DNA from: Pseudomonadales bacterium
GTDB lineage: Bacteria; Pseudomonadota; Gammaproteobacteria; Pseudomonadales; Azotimanducaceae
NCBI GenBank assembly: GCA_028281885.1
Contig: JANQJA010000011.1
Location: forward strand, 129,200-193,199
Length of the DNA: 64,000 bases
Direction: 5' to 3'
Shown: one piece after another, positions 11,062 to 18,923 of the stretch
How the letters are laid out: the number at the start of each line of letters is the position of its first letter
Position numbering within the stretch: the first letter of the stretch is position 1
Made by a program: the position numbers and the translations under genes
The notes under the pieces: generated by a model
Database searches by the model: none
What the model saw: only the letters and a program-made list of their open reading frames with translations
What the model was told of the DNA's origin: nothing

Positions 11062-12447
11062 CTACTGCCGTGAATACGGCGGTCGCATCCTTGCCATGAT
11101 TTTCGAGATGCGCCGCGATTGGGTGTAGATGGACCGGGCATGACTGAACTGCCTGAAGCCGTCGAAACCGTGGTACGCGCCCATGCCGCTTGCGCCAATC
11201 CCGCCGAAGGGCAGATCTTCCATTGCCACATGCATGATGACGTCATTGAGTGTGACGCCGCCTGACGTTGTATGGGTGAGGACCCGTTCCCGTTCGTTCG
11301 TATCCTCGCCGAAATAATAGAGTCCCAGCGGCCTCGGGTGCGCGTTGATATAAGAGATTGGCTCGTCGATTCGCTGGTAACGCCTGATCGGAAGGATAGG
11401 GCCGAAGATTTCGTCCTGCATGACGGTCATGTCGTCGGTCGGATCGAGGATCAGGGTAGGGGGAATCCGGCGATGTTGCTGCTGGCTGAAATCTTCGCCA
11501 GCGGGATTGAGTTCGACGATTTCTGCCCCCTTGGCGCGAGCATCGTCGAGATATGCCCGTAGTCGGTCATAGTGTCGGTCGCTGATGATCGTCGTGTAGT
11601 CGGGGTTGTCCTTCAAGGTGGGATACATTCGAGTCACCGCCGCGCGAGCGGCATCAACGAATTCATCGAGGCGAGTCTCGGGCAACATGGCATAGTCCGG
11701 CGCGAGGCAGATCTGGCCGGCATTCATGGTCTTTCCAGACATGACATTGTCGGCAGTGAGCGCCATATCCGCCGAACCGCTGACGATGACCGGTGACTTG
11801 CCACCCAGTTCGAGGGTTACCGGGACCAGGTTCTCGGCTGCAGCCTTCATGATGATGCGCCCGATTGATGTGGCGCCGGTAAACAGCAGGTGATCGAAGG
11901 GCAGGCCGCTGAACTCTGCACCGACCTCAGGACCGCCTGTGAATACAGCGATTTCTTCCTGGGCAAAGGCCTCTTCGATCAGATCCTTCATCAGCTCTGA
12001 TGTCAGAGGTGTCAGCTCCGACGGTTTTATCATGGCGCGATTGCCCGCGGCTAGAATCCCGGCCAGCGGTGTGAACGTGAGATTGACCGGGAAATTCCAT
12101 GGACTGATGCAGCCAACCACGCCGACCGGCTGATATCGGACCTCGGCTCTACCGCCGAGCAGCCGAAGTGGAAATTGCAGCGGTCGTCGCTCTGTTTTCA
12201 TCCAGCTCCGAACGTGTTTGACAGCGTGTTTGAGTGGTGCAATTGAGCCGTTGATATCGGTTGACCGGCTCTGGTGGTGACTGCGATGGCCAAAATCTTC
12301 CGCCATGGCTTCGATCAGTCGTGAACCATGATCCTGTAGCAAACTGATGGCGCGCTGCAGACGATCGATGCGGACTTCGGCGGGGACGAATCCCTCGTTC
12401 AGATAAGACTTGCGCTGTATTTCCAGTACTTCTTGCATCGATGTCAT
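11062..12447 (-). CDS. Aldehyde dehydrogenase family protein (ALDH3 / coniferyl-aldehyde dehydrogenase-like)
   Basis: SPWNFP, ELGGKSP and the catalytic GQICLAPDY motifs. ATGA overlap with the upstream GNAT gene. Confidence 0.85.
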   Translation of the reverse strand: MTSMQEVLEIQRKSYLNEGFVPAEVRIDRLQRAISLLQDHGSRLIEAMAEDFGHRSHHQSRSTDINGSIAPLKHAVKHVRSWMKTERRPLQFPLRLLGGRAEVRYQPVGVVGCISPWNFPVNLTFTPLAGILAAGNRAMIKPSELTPLTSELMKDLIEEAFAQEEIAVFTGGPEVGAEFSGLPFDHLLFTGATSIGRIIMKAAAENLVPVTLELGGKSPVIVSGSADMALTADNVMSGKTMNAGQICLAPDYAMLPETRLDEFVDAARAAVTRMYPTLKDNPDYTTIISDRHYDRLRAYLDDARAKGAEIVELNPAGEDFSQQQHRRIPPTLILDPTDDMTVMQDEIFGPILPIRRYQRIDEPISYINAHPRPLGLYYFGEDTNERERVLTHTTSGGVTLNDVIMHVAMEDLPFGGIGASGMGAYHGFDGFRQFSHARSIYTQSRRISKIMARMRPPYSRQ

Positions 12448-13025
12448 GGTGGGTCTCCGGTCAATTGCGGCCTTGTTAGCGAGTAAAGGTAGGCATCGTG
12501 CATTCGTTGATGAATCTTGAGTCTTCGAGCCAGTTGGCCTTCATAACTGGCGCCCGCATTCTCTGCGACCTTGCGGCTCGCGGTGTTCTCGGTAGACATG
12601 ATGATTTCAATCCGTTCGACATCCAGCCAGCGAAACGCAAAATTGGCGAGGCCCAGGGTCGCTTCCGATGCGTACCCCTTACTGGTTTCGCTGGTCCGCA
12701 TCCAGTAACCGAGGTTCATCACCGGATGTTCGTCCAGTCGGCTCACGCCGCATCCGCCCAGTAGTCGTGACCGCTGCGTATCGTAGATGGCAAAGGAATA
12801 CACGGATCGATCCTGCCAGGCTGGCTCGACTGAACGAATCCAGTCTCTCGAATCCTCGATGGCGTAGTTGGGATGGCACCAGGGCAGAAATGCGTGGACT
12901 TCTCGGATTGATTCACGCGCTGCTTCATACAGGTGACGGGCGTCCGCCAGCACATAGCGTCTGACAAAGAGGCGGTCAGTCTCAAAAGACAGGGGGATTC
13001 CCTGCTTGCGAGCTAGGTTGACCAT
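12444..13025 (-). CDS. GNAT family N-acetyltransferase (RimJ/RimL-like)
   Basis: TDRLFVRRY start and ASRKVAENAGASYEG are GNAT motifs. ATG 13025 shares one base with the TGA of the upstream gene (TGATG). The ORF-track start at 13055 would overlap that gene by 31 nt. Confidence 0.75.
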   Translation of the reverse strand: MVNLARKQGIPLSFETDRLFVRRYVLADARHLYEAARESIREVHAFLPWCHPNYAIEDSRDWIRSVEPAWQDRSVYSFAIYDTQRSRLLGGCGVSRLDEHPVMNLGYWMRTSETSKGYASEATLGLANFAFRWLDVERIEIIMSTENTASRKVAENAGASYEGQLARRLKIHQRMHDAYLYSLTRPQLTGDPP

Positions 13026-14395
13026 CAGCTGAATTCTTCCGTCTGATATCGCCACACCTTGATCGTTTTGCTCCAGCCTTCCCGGGGCAGCCCCGCCTTG
13101 CGGCGAAGTTCGCCTACGAATCCGGTTGGATCCGCGATCTGTTCCCAGACTGAGGGCAGGTAGGTAGCGCGGCGGCCGCCATCATCAATGATCAGGCCGT
13201 CGATGCCGGGCCTGAGTTGTCCTTCCAGCGTTTCTCGATCCGCTACTGTCACCGGCTCGGGCACACTGAGTACCGAGATATGAACGTCAATATCCTGGTA
13301 TTCCTCCAGGCTCAGCGGCTTGAAGCGCGGATCCTGAAAGGCCGCGGCCTGGGCGTTGTTGAGGACGTCGACGACGAGTTCCCGGTGCGCGGTCAGGCTG
13401 CCGATACAGCCCCGCAGGTGCCCGGACCGGTTAATCGTTACAAAGCTGGCACGTTGCGCGCGTAGCGCTGCAGGAAACGATGCCGGGTCGATAGAATAGG
13501 AACCCTTGCCGAGCAGTGGTTGCAGAATCGCCTCCCGCGCCACCTGAAGCAATCGCTGGCGCCAGGCAGGTAGCAGTTCGCTTCCCAGTCGTGGATGTTC
13601 GTGAACGGCGAAGGCACCGTAGCCAACGACACGGCTCTTGTCTCCGGCCGTGTCACCGGAGTTACGAAGGTCGATCTGTTCGATGGCAAGACCGCGTCGT
13701 TTTGCCAGGGTGAGCAGCCCATTGATCGGTCGGTAGCCACAGGCCTCTTCGCCAACCAGGCAGTCATCCAGCGCGACGATACGTTCACAGGTGCGAGTGT
13801 CGATTTGGCGAGCTTCGTTATAAGAGTGGTAATGACTCAGGTCAGAACTGATGACAACCAGCGTCTCAGGTCCACCCCAGAGCAGTTCAAGGATGTCCGC
13901 GACATCCGTGGCACCAGCGTCACCCACGACCAGTGGAACCAGTTGAAAGTCACCGAGCGTTCGTTGCAGAAATGGTAAGTGCACTTCAAGACTGTGTTCC
14001 TGTGCATGCGCCTCGTCGAGAAAGCCGACCGAGGGGCGAGTCAATGCCTGCTGGATCGATTGGGTGTCGATGGGTATATCGCCGAGCGGGGTGCGGTAAG
14101 TCGTCGCAGAGGTCGCTGCGATGCCGCGAAAGCCAACCCGGTGGGAGGGGCCCAGCAAGACGACCCGGTTAATCCGGTCGGCGGCATTCTTGAGCGAGGC
14201 ATAGACGCTGGCTGCGACCGGGCCCGAGTAAATGTGTCCGGCGTGTGGTGCGATGACGGCCTTGGGCGGACTACCGCTCGTGGCGGCGGCATCAAGCATC
14301 TGGTCGACAGATTTGGCGAGTGCGACCGGATCTGCCGTATAAAAGGTGCCGGCAACCGCCGGTTCCCTGACCGCGTCCATGGCACTTTTACTCAT
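13025..14395 (-). CDS. amrB: Fused AmmeMemoRadiSam system protein B (MEMO1-like) and protein A (AMMECR1 domain)
   Basis: The N-terminal half has VIAPHAGHIYSG and SSDLSHY Memo-type motifs. The C-terminal half has the AMMECR1 motif ASFVTINRSGHLRGCIGS. It is divergent from the matching radical SAM gene. Confidence 0.85.
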   Translation of the reverse strand: MSKSAMDAVREPAVAGTFYTADPVALAKSVDQMLDAAATSGSPPKAVIAPHAGHIYSGPVAASVYASLKNAADRINRVVLLGPSHRVGFRGIAATSATTYRTPLGDIPIDTQSIQQALTRPSVGFLDEAHAQEHSLEVHLPFLQRTLGDFQLVPLVVGDAGATDVADILELLWGGPETLVVISSDLSHYHSYNEARQIDTRTCERIVALDDCLVGEEACGYRPINGLLTLAKRRGLAIEQIDLRNSGDTAGDKSRVVGYGAFAVHEHPRLGSELLPAWRQRLLQVAREAILQPLLGKGSYSIDPASFPAALRAQRASFVTINRSGHLRGCIGSLTAHRELVVDVLNNAQAAAFQDPRFKPLSLEEYQDIDVHISVLSVPEPVTVADRETLEGQLRPGIDGLIIDDGGRRATYLPSVWEQIADPTGFVGELRRKAGLPREGWSKTIKVWRYQTEEFS

Positions 14396-14446: not shown

Positions 14447-15571
14447 ATGTCAATGATTCTGGACTGGAGACTGGGTCAGTCGGGGCAGGGAGCCTCCGGG
14501 CCAATGCGGGCAGGCGGTTATTTCCACCGGCTGTCTGACGGTCGACTGCAATGTGATCTCTGCCCTCGATTTTGTCGTTTACGGGAAGGGCAGCGGGGGC
14601 TCTGCTTTGTCAGGGCCCGGCAAAATGACGAAATTGTGCTGACAACCTATGGTCGTTCCAGCGGTTTCTGCGTTGATCCCATCGAAAAGAAACCCCTCAA
14701 CCATTTTCTGCCGGGTACGCCGGTCCTGTCGTTTGGCACGGCAGGCTGTAACCTGGCCTGTAAATTCTGCCAGAACTGGGACATGAGCAAGTCCCGGGAA
14801 ATGGACACACTGGCCGATGAAGCGACGCCCGAAACGCTGGCCAGGGCTGCATCGGAACTCGGATGTCGAAGTATCGCGTACACCTACAACGATCCGGTGA
14901 TCTTTCTGGAATATGCAGTGGATGTTGCACGTGCTGCGCATGAGCTGGGCATTGCCTCTGTGGCGGTGACAGCGGGTTACATTACTCCTGAGCCGCGACG
15001 AGATTTTTTTAAGCATATCGATGCGGCCAACGTCGATCTGAAGGCTTTTACCGAGCGCTTCTACCACCGCATCTGCGGCGGTCATCTCAGGGACGTGCTC
15101 GATACATTGCTTTACCTCAAGCATGAAAGCACCACATGGTTTGAGTTAACGACGCTGTTGATTCCCGGTGAAAACGACTCTGCAGAGGAGATCGAGGCCA
15201 TGTCCCGGTGGGTGGCCGACAATCTGGGCCCTGACGTTCCGATGCACTTTACGGCCTTTCATCCCGACTATCGTATGCAGGACAAGAGCGCGACGCCCCC
15301 TGCGACGCTGAGCCGAGCGAGGGAAATTGCCCGGGCCAATGGCATTGCGCACGTTTACACCGGTAATGTTCATGACAGTGAAGGCGGCAGTACCTACTGC
15401 TCGGGATGTGGCGCCAGAGTGATCGAACGAGACTGGTACGCACTGGGTGAATGGCGATTGGACGCCCAGGGTTGTTGTCGCGCCTGCGGTACACGAGTGC
15501 CAGGTGTGTTTGATCCTGAGCCCGGTAACTGGGGGCGTCGTCGACAGCCGATCCGCCTCGGCAACCCCTGA
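14447..15571 (+). CDS. amrS: AmmeMemoRadiSam system radical SAM enzyme
   Basis: N-terminal CDLCPRFC cysteine cluster plus the radical SAM motif GCNLACKFCQNW. A C-terminal CSGCG...CCRACG cluster is also present. The start could be the in-frame ATG at 14504. Confidence 0.85.
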   Translation: MSMILDWRLGQSGQGASGPMRAGGYFHRLSDGRLQCDLCPRFCRLREGQRGLCFVRARQNDEIVLTTYGRSSGFCVDPIEKKPLNHFLPGTPVLSFGTAGCNLACKFCQNWDMSKSREMDTLADEATPETLARAASELGCRSIAYTYNDPVIFLEYAVDVARAAHELGIASVAVTAGYITPEPRRDFFKHIDAANVDLKAFTERFYHRICGGHLRDVLDTLLYLKHESTTWFELTTLLIPGENDSAEEIEAMSRWVADNLGPDVPMHFTAFHPDYRMQDKSATPPATLSRAREIARANGIAHVYTGNVHDSEGGSTYCSGCGARVIERDWYALGEWRLDAQGCCRACGTRVPGVFDPEPGNWGRRRQPIRLGNP

Positions 15572-15661
15572 TCGGCCTGGCGGACATCCGCTGTACCTGT
15601 TTCCTGCTTCACTATAGGCTTGTCTGCAACGTGTTGTGCAACCTAGTGTTTGGAGTTGACG

Positions 15662-17947
15662 ATGGCTTCCGAGCCAACTGAATCAGCCGGCAACTTGCTT
15701 GCCCAGATACGCACTCCCGGTACCTTGATGCTGGATTGCAGTGTGCTGAAAAAGGGTAATGACAACTACCATGTTGACATCCAGCTATCCAAACGCTTTA
15801 TCGGTGCGACCCGGGAAGTCATCCAGGGCATGTCGAAGCGCGCGTTGTCCGGACGCCGGCCAGCGGCCACATCCGAGGATGCCGAGGAGTTCCGCGAGGC
15901 CTACGTTGAGATCGTTGAGGACAGCCTGCATCGGACCAAGACAGACCTGACGCCAGCCGAGGTGTGTGTATTGCATTTCGGCGTGGTCAAGTTTGTCATT
16001 GCTGAAATTCGGGCGAGTCTCGACGCTGTCGTCCAGGATCTGGAAGAGACACTGGCACAGCAGCAGTATGCCGGCTCCCGCAGCCTGCTGGTTACGCAGC
16101 AGAAGTTCGCCTGGGTCAGGCAGCACTATGCTTCGTTTCAGTTTCGTATCACTCGCGCGATGTTGAGGCTGCTGCAGCGGGAAGAAAACAACCAGCTGCG
16201 CACGCTACGAGAGCAGTTTCTTGGCGACGCCATGATGGAGTTGCCTCACGTGTTGTTGAATCCGTTGCTGGCGGGCCCACCGCGGGATGCACTGCTGCTG
16301 ATGGAAAACTATGCCCTTTGGGCTGACAGCGGTAAGAGATTTTCGTCAGCCAACGAGAAGCTTGAGGCGCTTCTCAGGAAGCGGTTGAGTCAGCTTGATA
16401 TTGTTTCGTTGAAACCACCGGGTAAGTCGGAAGGTGCAACCGAAGTTTACGACGAGTTCGGCGGACTTTTCAGCATTCAGGAGATGCTGGGCCCGGCGGT
16501 CGATCAGAAGGAATCGGTATCCGAGGAATTCAGCTGGCTCGATCATCCGGGCAATTTTCGCCTGTTATTTGACGCCAGCGTGCACGAGCGGATGCGGGCT
16601 CAGCAGGAAGGTCGGCGTGCCCAATGGAAATTCCGCTCTGGGGCCAGGAAACTGGAGAAAATCGGCGTTGAAGCGATACGCGCCCTTGCCTCCGATGCTG
16701 AAGCGAAAATCATGATTGCAGGTTATGTGTTGCGGGAAGAGTGGCTGCCTGCCTGGGATGACATTCTTGATGTCGCCAGCGCCTGTGCTTATGTGGCAGG
16801 GCAGGATGACAAGCGAATCCTCGCCCGCATTGATCAGAGCAAGGAAGGCGCACTGCTGATGATCAAGAAGCTGGACGAATTGTCGAAAAAAGCTGCGCGA
16901 GTTTACAAGGAAGACATGGATGAGATTCGGGTGCGAATCCTCACCGATGTATCTCGATATCGACTGCATCTCAAATACTTCCGATTTGCCCATCGAATAT
17001 TCAATCGAATTTCTGTGTTAACTGAGCCTGAAGAGATCCATCTATCCAGGGCCAACGGGCGGCTCTATCAGCTTACCGGTCGCGAGGAAGATGAAGACGA
17101 TGTGTTGCATGAGCCGCAGATCATCCACCATGCGGTGCTCAAGGCGGATGTCAGGGGATCAACGACCGTGACACAGGAACTGATCCGGCAGAATCTGAAT
17201 CCTGCTTCCTATTTCAGTACTCGATTCTTTGGGCCTATCAATGACCTGCTGTCGGTGTATGGGGCAGAGAAAATTTTCATTGAGGGGGATGCCATCATTC
17301 TCGGGATCCATGAGTACGACCAGTCACCGGAGGACTGGTATTCGGTGAGCCGCATCTGCGGTATTGCCAAGGAAATTCTCGATATCGTCAGTTCGAAGAA
17401 TGCCCATTCAAAATCCACCGGTCTGCCGTTGCTGGAGCTGGGTATCGGCATCTGCTACGAGGATGACCGACCACTGTTTTTGTTTGATGAAGACAAGCCC
17501 ATCATGATTTCGCCGGCCATTGGTGAGGCCGATCGAATGAGCTCCTGTAGCTGGCGACTGCGAGAAGCGTTTGCGGAAGCTCCCTTCCATGTGCAGGTAC
17601 TGAACATGTCCGAGGACGACAGTAGTCGAGGTGAGAAGGGGCAGACCCAGGTTCGATACAACCTGAACGGCATCCTGATGGCTAACGATGCCTTTATCAA
17701 ACTGAAGTCTGAGATTCAGCTAAAGAAGGTCAGCATCAAGGTCGTGGATCGCAGCGAAACGATGTATGTGGGCCGCTTCCCGGATGTTAGGGGGAAGGAA
17801 CGTGAGCTGGTCATTCGCGAGGGTATTGTCGGTCGCTGGGACGGTGAACAATCAACCCCCGGACCGGAAGACGGAGAACGGTATTACGAAGTACTGCCCA
17901 ACTCGAAGCTGGCGAGCCAGGTGCTGGAGGTTGTGCGTAGCCAATAG
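15662..17947 (+). CDS. Large uncharacterised protein with C-terminal class III nucleotidyl-cyclase-like domain
   Basis: ATG 15662 is preceded by GGAG (15652-15655). Residues ~490-640 (nt 17117-17569) read VLKADVRGST ... FIEGDAIILG ... LGIGICYED ... SPAIGEADRMSS. These fit the beta1-Asp, GD-Asp and Arg positions of class III cyclases. The N-terminal ~480 aa are helical with no motif I recognise. Confidence 0.6.
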   Translation: MASEPTESAGNLLAQIRTPGTLMLDCSVLKKGNDNYHVDIQLSKRFIGATREVIQGMSKRALSGRRPAATSEDAEEFREAYVEIVEDSLHRTKTDLTPAEVCVLHFGVVKFVIAEIRASLDAVVQDLEETLAQQQYAGSRSLLVTQQKFAWVRQHYASFQFRITRAMLRLLQREENNQLRTLREQFLGDAMMELPHVLLNPLLAGPPRDALLLMENYALWADSGKRFSSANEKLEALLRKRLSQLDIVSLKPPGKSEGATEVYDEFGGLFSIQEMLGPAVDQKESVSEEFSWLDHPGNFRLLFDASVHERMRAQQEGRRAQWKFRSGARKLEKIGVEAIRALASDAEAKIMIAGYVLREEWLPAWDDILDVASACAYVAGQDDKRILARIDQSKEGALLMIKKLDELSKKAARVYKEDMDEIRVRILTDVSRYRLHLKYFRFAHRIFNRISVLTEPEEIHLSRANGRLYQLTGREEDEDDVLHEPQIIHHAVLKADVRGSTTVTQELIRQNLNPASYFSTRFFGPINDLLSVYGAEKIFIEGDAIILGIHEYDQSPEDWYSVSRICGIAKEILDIVSSKNAHSKSTGLPLLELGIGICYEDDRPLFLFDEDKPIMISPAIGEADRMSSCSWRLREAFAEAPFHVQVLNMSEDDSSRGEKGQTQVRYNLNGILMANDAFIKLKSEIQLKKVSIKVVDRSETMYVGRFPDVRGKERELVIREGIVGRWDGEQSTPGPEDGERYYEVLPNSKLASQVLEVVRSQ

Positions 17948-17951
17948 AACG

Positions 17952-18923
17952 CTAATTCGGTGGTAGGTACTTTGCGCAGGTTGCCTGGACCGCTTCGGCG
18001 GTTGGTGGTATCGGGGCGTCCTCGCTTGTCACATATCGGAACCGACCTGATCCGTGATCGGCGCCAAACAGGCGGACATTGACTTCCGGCACGACAAATC
18101 CGTTCCCACGAATTGCAGCGTATTCCTCATTAAGTTCATCGAAGGAGCGGCCGGATTCCTGATCGCCCGTTGTGACGCCTTCGTGCAACTGATGAAAGCT
18201 GCCTTCACCGGCCAGGTAGATGGGTACGACGCCTTTGTGCTCGACCGCTCGCTTGTAGAAGTCCAGGTTCACCAGCCCCCCACCCGGAGACTGAAAGGCT
18301 TCGTCAAAACCGGACAGCGACTGAAAGAGGCGTTGTGACACAACGATGCAGTTGCTTTCCGCAATCGGACCAAACCAGCCCTGCGGACATGAACCGCCCC
18401 AGCTGGCGATTTCAAACAGGCGATAGCCATCGCTTGGCCAGTCAATGTGCGCAAGCAGCCGGTCCTCCACGGATTGGGTATACCCTGCGTTGACGCTGTT
18501 TCGCTGATGGTCGGGCCCCAGGTGAAGTCCAAGCACGGCAATCACGGGTTCAGGGTTGTCCTTGACCGCCCGACGGGCGCCGGCCACCACACCGGGACTG
18601 AGCATGCGTGCGCCGTCGATCATGATGGCGACGTAATCTCCCTGTGCCTGCTGGACGCCATAATTGACGGCGCCCGCCGGGGAGGGGCTGGCCTCCTCCA
18701 GATAATAAGAGCGTAGCGGAACACCGATGTCTCGTGCATCGATGTCGAGCGGTGGTTTCGAACCGTTGTCGACCAGAATGACCTCCCAGTCGGTATCGGC
18801 AGAGTTCTGCTGGTAGCTTCTCGACAGCGTATGCAGCGTGCGTGAGATTTCTCGAGGCATGTTGTACGCGATGACAACAACGGAGATGAGCGGGCGTGGG
18901 TTCAGCAGTCTGCGAAGTCGCAT
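17952..18923 (-). CDS. Glycosyltransferase family 2
   Basis: The ISVVVIAYNMPREISRTL ... VILVDNGS GT2 N-terminus begins right after Met at 18923. The longer ORF (start 18992) would leave only 16 bp to the divergent gene. Confidence 0.75.
   Translation of the reverse strand: MRLRRLLNPRPLISVVVIAYNMPREISRTLHTLSRSYQQNSADTDWEVILVDNGSKPPLDIDARDIGVPLRSYYLEEASPSPAGAVNYGVQQAQGDYVAIMIDGARMLSPGVVAGARRAVKDNPEPVIAVLGLHLGPDHQRNSVNAGYTQSVEDRLLAHIDWPSDGYRLFEIASWGGSCPQGWFGPIAESNCIVVSQRLFQSLSGFDEAFQSPGGGLVNLDFYKRAVEHKGVVPIYLAGEGSFHQLHEGVTTGDQESGRSFDELNEEYAAIRGNGFVVPEVNVRLFGADHGSGRFRYVTSEDAPIPPTAEAVQATCAKYLPPN

Follow-up and report, generated by a model that had tools for sequence, protein, structure and literature searches.

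The sequence considered here, referred to as the window, is a stretch of 64,000 nucleotides from contig JANQJA010000011.1 of a Pseudomonadales bacterium belonging to the Azotimanducaceae (GenBank assembly GCA_028281885.1). On its + strand, at positions 15662..17947, it carries an open reading frame (ORF) of 761 amino acids plus stop, which belongs to a large unnamed protein family. The frame opens with the ATG at 15662, with an alternative in-frame TTG at 15650, and closes with the stop codon at 17945-17947. Since a GGAG ribosome-binding site (15652..15655, + strand, read directly from the sequence) is found 6 nt 5′ of the ATG, and the homologs align from residues 1-8 to the end, the 761-aa product (P0001) is taken as the protein and is called the target below. 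Its predicted structure is best explained as a three-part cytoplasmic protein, composed of a 480-residue helical domain, a divergent cyclase homology domain (CHD), and a small β-rich tail. The middle domain is homologous to the class III adenylyl/guanylyl cyclases (AC/GC) and not to the GGDEF proteins. Judged from its sequence, this cyclase domain is divergent and probably working, and the protein may be an unrecognised signalling enzyme.

The class III cyclase-homology-like domain covers about residues 486-672 (17117..17677, + strand), with support from Foldseek, HHalign, hidden Markov model (HMM) searches, and conservation. The full-length AlphaFold2 (AF2) model, built with 55 homologs, has a mean predicted local distance difference test score (pLDDT) of 89.5 and a predicted template modelling score (pTM) of 0.77, and within it residues 487-626 follow the order β-α-α-β-β-α-β-β-β-α. 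The top 50 Foldseek matches in the PDB are all class III AC/GC catalytic domains, with E values from 2e-6 to 2e-4 and template modelling (TM) scores, normalised to the target, of 0.6-0.74; they include Rv1625c, Cya2, CyaC, CyaB, and Ma1120 (7yzk, 2w01, 1wc0, 3r5g, and 4wp8 are among the entries). At the level of profiles, HHalign aligned 169 non-redundant family members to 25 genuine PF00211 domains collected from related genomes with a probability of 96.4% (E 1.4e-9, 136 columns), and the alignment of the close clade gave 93.5%. Given these E values, the uniform Foldseek list, and the conservation over the 169 relatives, the resemblance goes far beyond chance. The profile of the C-terminal 278 residues finds its best PDB sequence match in Cya2 (2w01), at a weak E of 0.029, with the DLRGFT, GD, and LEMGIGI motifs in register. 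A phmmer search of the PDB returned only a marginal match (5mbg at E 1.9), the full-length family profile matched nothing in the PDB, and neither Pfam nor NCBIfam has a match for the target protein. The target shares its fold, its order of strands and helices, and profile-profile homology with the class III CHDs (PF00211; Synechocystis Cya2, 2w01; Spirulina CyaC, 1wc0), whereas its identity to the solved cyclases is only 10-17% and it lies below PF00211 detection.

The GGDEF diguanylate cyclases (PF00990) have the same broad palm-like nucleotidyl cyclase superfold and were considered as the alternative relatives. This assignment was rejected, as comparison with 10 GGDEF domains from the host genome gave an HHalign probability of just 0.3% and the hairpin of the target reads I-E-G-D-A, with no GGDEF motif. 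An earlier note, made from the letters alone, had recognised a class III cyclase core and proposed comparing a structural model and profiles with PF00211 and GGDEF. Its recognition of the core is borne out by Foldseek, HHalign, and the weak HMM match to Cya2, and the comparison returns the class III fold and excludes GGDEF.

Four motifs of the CHD active site can be placed in the domain, all on the + strand, with residue conservation computed over the 169 non-redundant sequences. The first comprises strand β1 and the phosphate loop, H490-xxx-K494-A-D496-V-R498-G-S-T501 (17129..17164), aligned to F-x-D-I-x-G-F-T of true CHDs, in which D496 (97% conserved) stands for the first metal Asp and is accompanied by R498 (99%), H490 (98%), and K494 (98%). 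The second is the β2-β3 hairpin K537-I-F539-I-E541-G-D543-A (17270..17293), where the HHalign columns identify D543 (98%) as the second metal Asp. Four residues before it, F539 (96%) occupies the column of the adenine-specifying Lys (Lys/Glu) and is flanked by K537 (98%) and E541 (96%). The third motif, strand β4, reads L-E592-L-G594-I-G596-I (17432..17452; E592 95%, G594 98%, G596 99%); according to HHalign and the alignment with Cya2, it has Gly in place of the Arg of R-I-G-I-H, and the pattern LExGIGI is common to Cya2 and the target. The fourth is helix α4, S617-P-A-I-G621-E-A-D-R625-M-S-S (17510..17545), aligned to G-x-x-V-N-x-A-S-R-L, with R625 (93%) in the column of the transition-state Arg of VNxASR. 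The Asp/Cys/Thr base-specifying column falls on P613 or I614, the latter being 95% conserved. G621 takes the column of the ribose-binding Asn in the target, and across the family 78 of the 169 sequences have N at this position and 70 have G, which marks two deep subfamilies. All named loci, the window included, carry Gly, and no residue co-varies with the N/G switch at a 75% threshold.

All motifs quoted in the earlier note are present (residues 490-501, 537-547, 591-598, and 616-628), and its statement that the two metal Asp and the Arg are retained stands, since HHalign puts D496, D543, and R625 in the catalytic columns. It had further claimed that the GFT, the substrate-specifying residues, and the Asn of VN are all replaced. 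This is correct for the base positions, which can now be located and hold the non-canonical F539 and P613/I614, and for the Asn in the target itself. It is not correct for the GFT, where DVRGST differs in the Phe alone, nor for the Asn in the family as a whole.

The spacing of the motifs is canonical. The intervals are 47, 53, and 29 residues, compared with 44, 50-54, and 30-31 in true CHDs. The distance from D496 to D543 is 47 residues in 169/169 sequences (44 in true CHDs), and the arm segment from G596 to R625, with its 29 residues, is close to the 30-31 of true CHDs, so the dimerisation arm is of normal length. The signature D-R-K-F-E-D-G-I-(N/G)-R is near-universal, even in members that are 24-29% identical overall, and residues 490-625 contain 45 of the 60 family-wide positions with conservation of ≥90%. 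The target thus resembles class III CHDs in its two metal Asp, in the G and T retained in the phosphate loop, in the transition-state Arg, and in the canonical spacing. It differs from them in the Phe at the Lys/Glu base position, in the Pro/Ile at the Asp/Cys/Thr position, in the Gly found for Asn in the subfamily of the window, and in the addition of the invariant H490, K494, K537, and E541, the 480-aa helical domain, and the β-rich tail.

Such conservation of the catalytic residues favours, as far as sequence can, an active enzyme over a pseudo-cyclase. In the latter case, no turnover would take place, and the domain would either sense a nucleotide or other ligand by binding it or provide a scaffold for protein interactions, while the N-terminal domain or the tail would supply the output. 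Several observations speak for it and weigh against an active cyclase. PF00211 has no match to the target protein at E<=1, leaving it below the Pfam gathering threshold, and a genome-wide six-frame PF00211 scan found two other cyclases and missed the target ORF. The base-specifying pairs of the known enzymes (Lys/Asp for ATP, Glu/Cys for GTP, and the known variants) are not matched by the residues of the target, and the β4 Arg and, in the subfamily of the window, the Asn are both replaced by Gly. Against an active cyclase it also counts that, of the 8 classical AC/GC active-site positions, no more than 3 are plainly canonical in the target; K659, conserved in 86 of 169 sequences, is a candidate fourth, proposed as the phosphate Lys by motif resemblance only and lying beyond the confident alignment. 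Finally, CHD-like folds can be non-catalytic, an example of which is AdvA (PMC13060281).

AdvA of Acinetobacter baumannii (PDB 7sua) is a CHD-like, non-catalytic divisome protein, which keeps 2 of 8 active-site residues, lacks the dimerisation arm, has an altered topology, and carries a transmembrane/periplasmic N-terminus (PMC13060281). Like the target, it comes from the Pseudomonadales and has a highly divergent CHD-like C-terminal domain left unannotated by family models. In contrast to AdvA, the target family has an arm of canonical length and keeps the metal Asp, the phosphate loop, and the Arg, and Pfam recognises no membrane domain in the target; 7sua is absent among the top 50 Foldseek matches. 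Conservation of 93-99% over very deep divergence for the two metal Asp, the phosphate loop, and the transition-state Arg, together with the canonical spacing and arm, speaks against a pseudo-cyclase. The loss of the β4 Arg is not disqualifying, because Cya2, deposited as a guanylyl cyclase, also reads LEMGIGI, and about half of the family keeps the Asn at position 621. A pseudo-cyclase is regarded as unlikely, though it is the main rival of the cyclase reading.

The changed base and ribose contacts, combined with the retained metal- and phosphate-binding residues, would also suit an active two-metal nucleotidyl transferase which is not 3′,5′-cyclising and employs the palm-like CHD core for linear or cyclic oligonucleotide synthesis or for nucleotidylation. 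The invariant charged residues H490, K494, K537, E541, and E592 alternate along the strands bearing D496 and D543, and from this strand periodicity they are inferred to face the active site, a further point in favour of such an enzyme. However, the nearest relatives by every method are mononucleotide cyclases, the GGDEF-type match is negligible, and no direct evidence points to another substrate. This kind of transferase is given little probability.

The domain preceding the cyclase core, residues 1-484 (15662..17113, + strand), is almost entirely helical in the AF2 model and is a putative regulatory or sensor domain. Residues 4-484, modelled alone by AF2, reach a pLDDT of 92.7 and a pTM of 0.92. 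The identity of this domain was sought with Foldseek, which against the PDB gave nothing at E<=1e-3 (best E 0.038, TM 0.28) and otherwise only designed helical repeats or designed proteins and generic bundles at E of about 0.04 or worse, all of which were rejected; Pfam and NCBIfam have no match either. The earlier note had likewise described ~480 aa of helical sequence in which it recognised no motif. Across loci, the identity is 18-59% in the N-terminal half and a much higher 45-80% in the C-terminal half, a contrast that fits a catalytic domain attached to a sensor domain. The sole cluster of positions conserved at ≥90% within the N-terminal domain is the hairpin motif G32-x-D34-N35-Y36-H37-x-D39 (15755..15778, + strand), defined from conservation over the 169 sequences. 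On the other side of the core, the β-rich tail comprises residues of about 673-761 (17678..17944, + strand), as drawn from the AF2 secondary structure, with no Pfam match and with F678, L681, E684, G711, R719, and E743 conserved family-wide. Because the cyclase domain probably extends to about residue 672, the tail is nearer 85-90 aa than the ~120 aa estimated previously.

A variant architecture is found in relatives of ~900 aa (P0135, P0145, P0154, P0158, and P0199), which possess an extra N-terminal Peptidase_A8 (LspA, signal peptidase II)-like domain fused directly before the conserved G-x-D-N-x-H-x-D hairpin. Both LspA Asp motifs, GNxxD and FNxAD, are legible in P0135, and P0164 looks degenerate. 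For the lineages concerned, such fusions point to anchoring in the membrane or to a connection with lipoprotein processing. At locus L135 (L135:5496-8700), the LspA-fusion gene starts 5 bp after the end of a DsbB gene, and a gene for a Crp-type regulator binding cyclic nucleoside monophosphates (cNMP) is located ~6 kb upstream; this arrangement is seen at a single locus and may be due to chance.

The protein is far from the orphan it had been called, since a word-seeded search found at least 177 full-length relatives, 45-67% identical and all unnamed. An exhaustive profile search of 1.84 billion representatives found 559 cluster representatives at E<=1e-3 and 254 at E<=1e-30. As these are representatives of clusters at 50% identity, the size of the family is stated as at least 559 clusters. 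The carriers among named genome contigs are Pseudomonadales (Azotimanducaceae, Halieaceae, Pseudohongiellaceae, and OM182- and SAR86-labelled metagenome-assembled genomes), Nitrospirota, Beggiatoaceae (Thioploca, Marithrix, and Halobeggiatoa), and Mariprofundaceae. The target gene is present in a single copy in its genome, in 31/151 genomes and 10/44 genera of the family Azotimanducaceae, and in 3/301 genomes sampled evenly across the order. Some members carry the automated JGI label 'class 3 adenylate cyclase', which counts in favour of a cyclase; the superfamily link is therefore not wholly unseen before. Bridging through such labelled members failed, PF00211 having no match to ten of the JGI-named relatives.

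Several copies of the gene are interrupted. In the gene at L131:2580-4897 (identical in L132, and carried on the 24 contigs read), the frame shifts near residue 267 and an in-frame stop immediately precedes the cyclase-like domain; an ATG directly after this stop would give a 298-aa C-terminal product. In this lineage, either the gene is decaying or the catalytic module is expressed alone. The gene at L133 has one in-frame stop. Stand-alone C-terminal modules of ~300 aa were considered as a separate form, which was rejected because each one examined on a long contig proved to be a full-length gene that is broken. The host genome of the window (G000) also encodes two canonical PF00211 cyclases (C17:190156-190698 and C10:110441-110926, in open frames of 696 and 299 aa) and has 14 GGDEF matches over the Pfam cut-off, so that conventional cNMP and cyclic di-GMP signalling is already present. 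The window derives from a coral metagenome, whose DNA runs are the only read runs found to contain its sequence.

Upstream of the target gene, on the same strand, lies amrS (14447..15571, +), the radical SAM gene of the AmmeMemoRadiSam system (TIGR04337, 8.7e-196). The gap of 78-90 bp given in the earlier note is exact, being 90 bp to the ATG and 78 bp to the TTG. Divergent from amrS is a gene for a fusion of AmrB (Memo) and AmrA (AMMECR1), at 13025..14395 on the - strand (PF01875 and PF01871; TIGR04336 and TIGR04335), followed by the genes for a GNAT acetyltransferase and an aldehyde dehydrogenase (ALDH). The order AmrB-AmrA fusion, GNAT (Acetyltransf_3), and ALDH (window 11062-14395, -) is repeated in many genomes of the bacterial family (L003-L007, L014-L024), and at L133 Memo and AMMECR1 are separate genes. 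Downstream of the target, a convergent GT2 gene ends 4 bp past the target stop (window 17945-17952), and no terminator-like hairpin was found between the two. Consensus scans of the amrS-target gap, rated as uninformative, found no + strand promoter or terminator.

This adjacency suggests that the target might work within the AmmeMemoRadiSam system, as a component, a substrate, or a regulator, and be transcribed together with amrS, and the two genes are perhaps an operon, as their short same-strand gap with no + strand terminator-like site would allow. The arrangement with ALDH, GNAT, and AmrAB on one strand and with AmrS followed by the target on the opposite strand is repeated in the close clade, at about 20 loci with 48-67% identity, as well as in L026, L070, and L133. 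Among the 151 genomes of the bacterial family, 24 have both genes, 7 only the target, 23 only AmrS, and 97 neither, which corresponds to an odds ratio of 14.5 (Fisher p=2e-9) in a test that ignores kinship within one bacterial family. Whenever a single contig carries both genes, they are direct neighbours with the same orientation, and amrS is the upstream one.

Nevertheless, this association is confounded by shared ancestry, and the link does not hold for the protein family as a whole. The 7 genomes with the target and without AmrS include 5/5 target-positive genomes of genus g28. At L010, L020, and L025 the amr genes are lost and GNAT and ALDH are retained beside the target, and at L011 and L012 ALDH alone is retained. 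Members of at most 42% identity have no amr neighbours, which includes all loci of Nitrospirota, Thioploca, and Mariprofundaceae; exceptions are seen at L026 and L070. In these distant lineages, the flanks are unrelated housekeeping-type genes (MltG-like, phosphopentomutase-like, and SlyD-like). No neighbour is conserved family-wide, the most frequent ORF cluster occurring at 26 of the 84 loci. The target adjoins amrS in the window and the close clade, yet it is none of the three defining proteins of the system, having no match to TIGR04335, TIGR04336, or TIGR04337. The link suggested earlier thus fails family-wide: the co-occurrence proposed as its check exists as an association within the bacterial family, and a consistent partnership does not. 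The adjacency is conserved local synteny within one bacterial family, and neither amrS nor the target requires the other. A role in the AmmeMemoRadiSam system is consequently considered very unlikely. An origin in defence or phage was also tried and rejected, as PADLOC assigned 0 families to P0001 and to the LspA fusion P0135, PHROGs returned nothing significant, and no effector-like neighbour is conserved.

The variable N-terminal domain joined to a conserved CHD, the catalytic residues kept at deep divergence, the canonical arm, and the lack of a fixed partner together make the cyclase the best reading; a variable gene context of this kind is usual for stand-alone signalling enzymes. From sequence and model, a signal-regulated class III-type nucleotidyl cyclase, whose base specificity is not readable from the sequence, is judged to fall just on the probable side. 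By analogy with other class III cyclases, the protein would act as a head-to-tail homodimer. D496 and D543 would hold two Mg2+/Mn2+ ions, and the 3′-OH of the bound nucleoside triphosphate would be activated to attack the α-phosphate; R625, contributed by the partner subunit, would stabilise the transition state. The reaction would yield a cyclic nucleotide and pyrophosphate. The N-terminal domain, which is less conserved, may set this activity in response to a signal, like the sensor domains of other bacterial cyclases.

Two features of the putative pocket bear on what such an enzyme would do. First, the predicted base pocket is non-canonical, with F539 for Lys/Glu and P613/I614 for Asp/Thr/Cys, and for this reason the nucleotide used is not readable from the sequence. 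Second, in the subfamily of the window, G621 in place of the ribose-positioning Asn could mean slow turnover or a differently held ribose, so the activity may be lowered or altered. The place downstream of amrS would represent an inherited local gene order, possibly co-transcribed, rather than a family-wide functional coupling. A bolder proposal, considered quite unlikely, is that of an active clade in which the hydrophobic pocket (F539, I614) and H490, K494, K537, and E541 would choose a substrate other than ATP or GTP. The result would be a new second messenger whose synthesis is governed by a new helical sensor fold, possibly wired to AmmeMemoRadiSam by co-transcription in the lineage of the window. 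To our knowledge, class III enzymes outside phage defence have so far had no such nucleotide messenger ascribed to them.

Signalling by cAMP and cGMP has its main source in the class III cyclases, whose bacterial census relies on PF00211. This model misses a family of at least several hundred clusters, distributed over marine Pseudomonadales, Nitrospirota, giant sulfur bacteria, and Zetaproteobacteria. As read from profiles and predicted structures, the family forms a large branch of the class III cyclase homologs that Pfam does not see, marked by its own active-site signature and by the new fold joined to it. A tempting weak lead is at the same time removed, as the target does not partner the AmmeMemoRadiSam system in general. 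If the family is inactive, it would join AdvA as the second independent case in which a CHD has been turned to another role. If it is active, an unrecognised signalling enzyme, possibly of new specificity, would be added, and a new sensor fold would become available for study.

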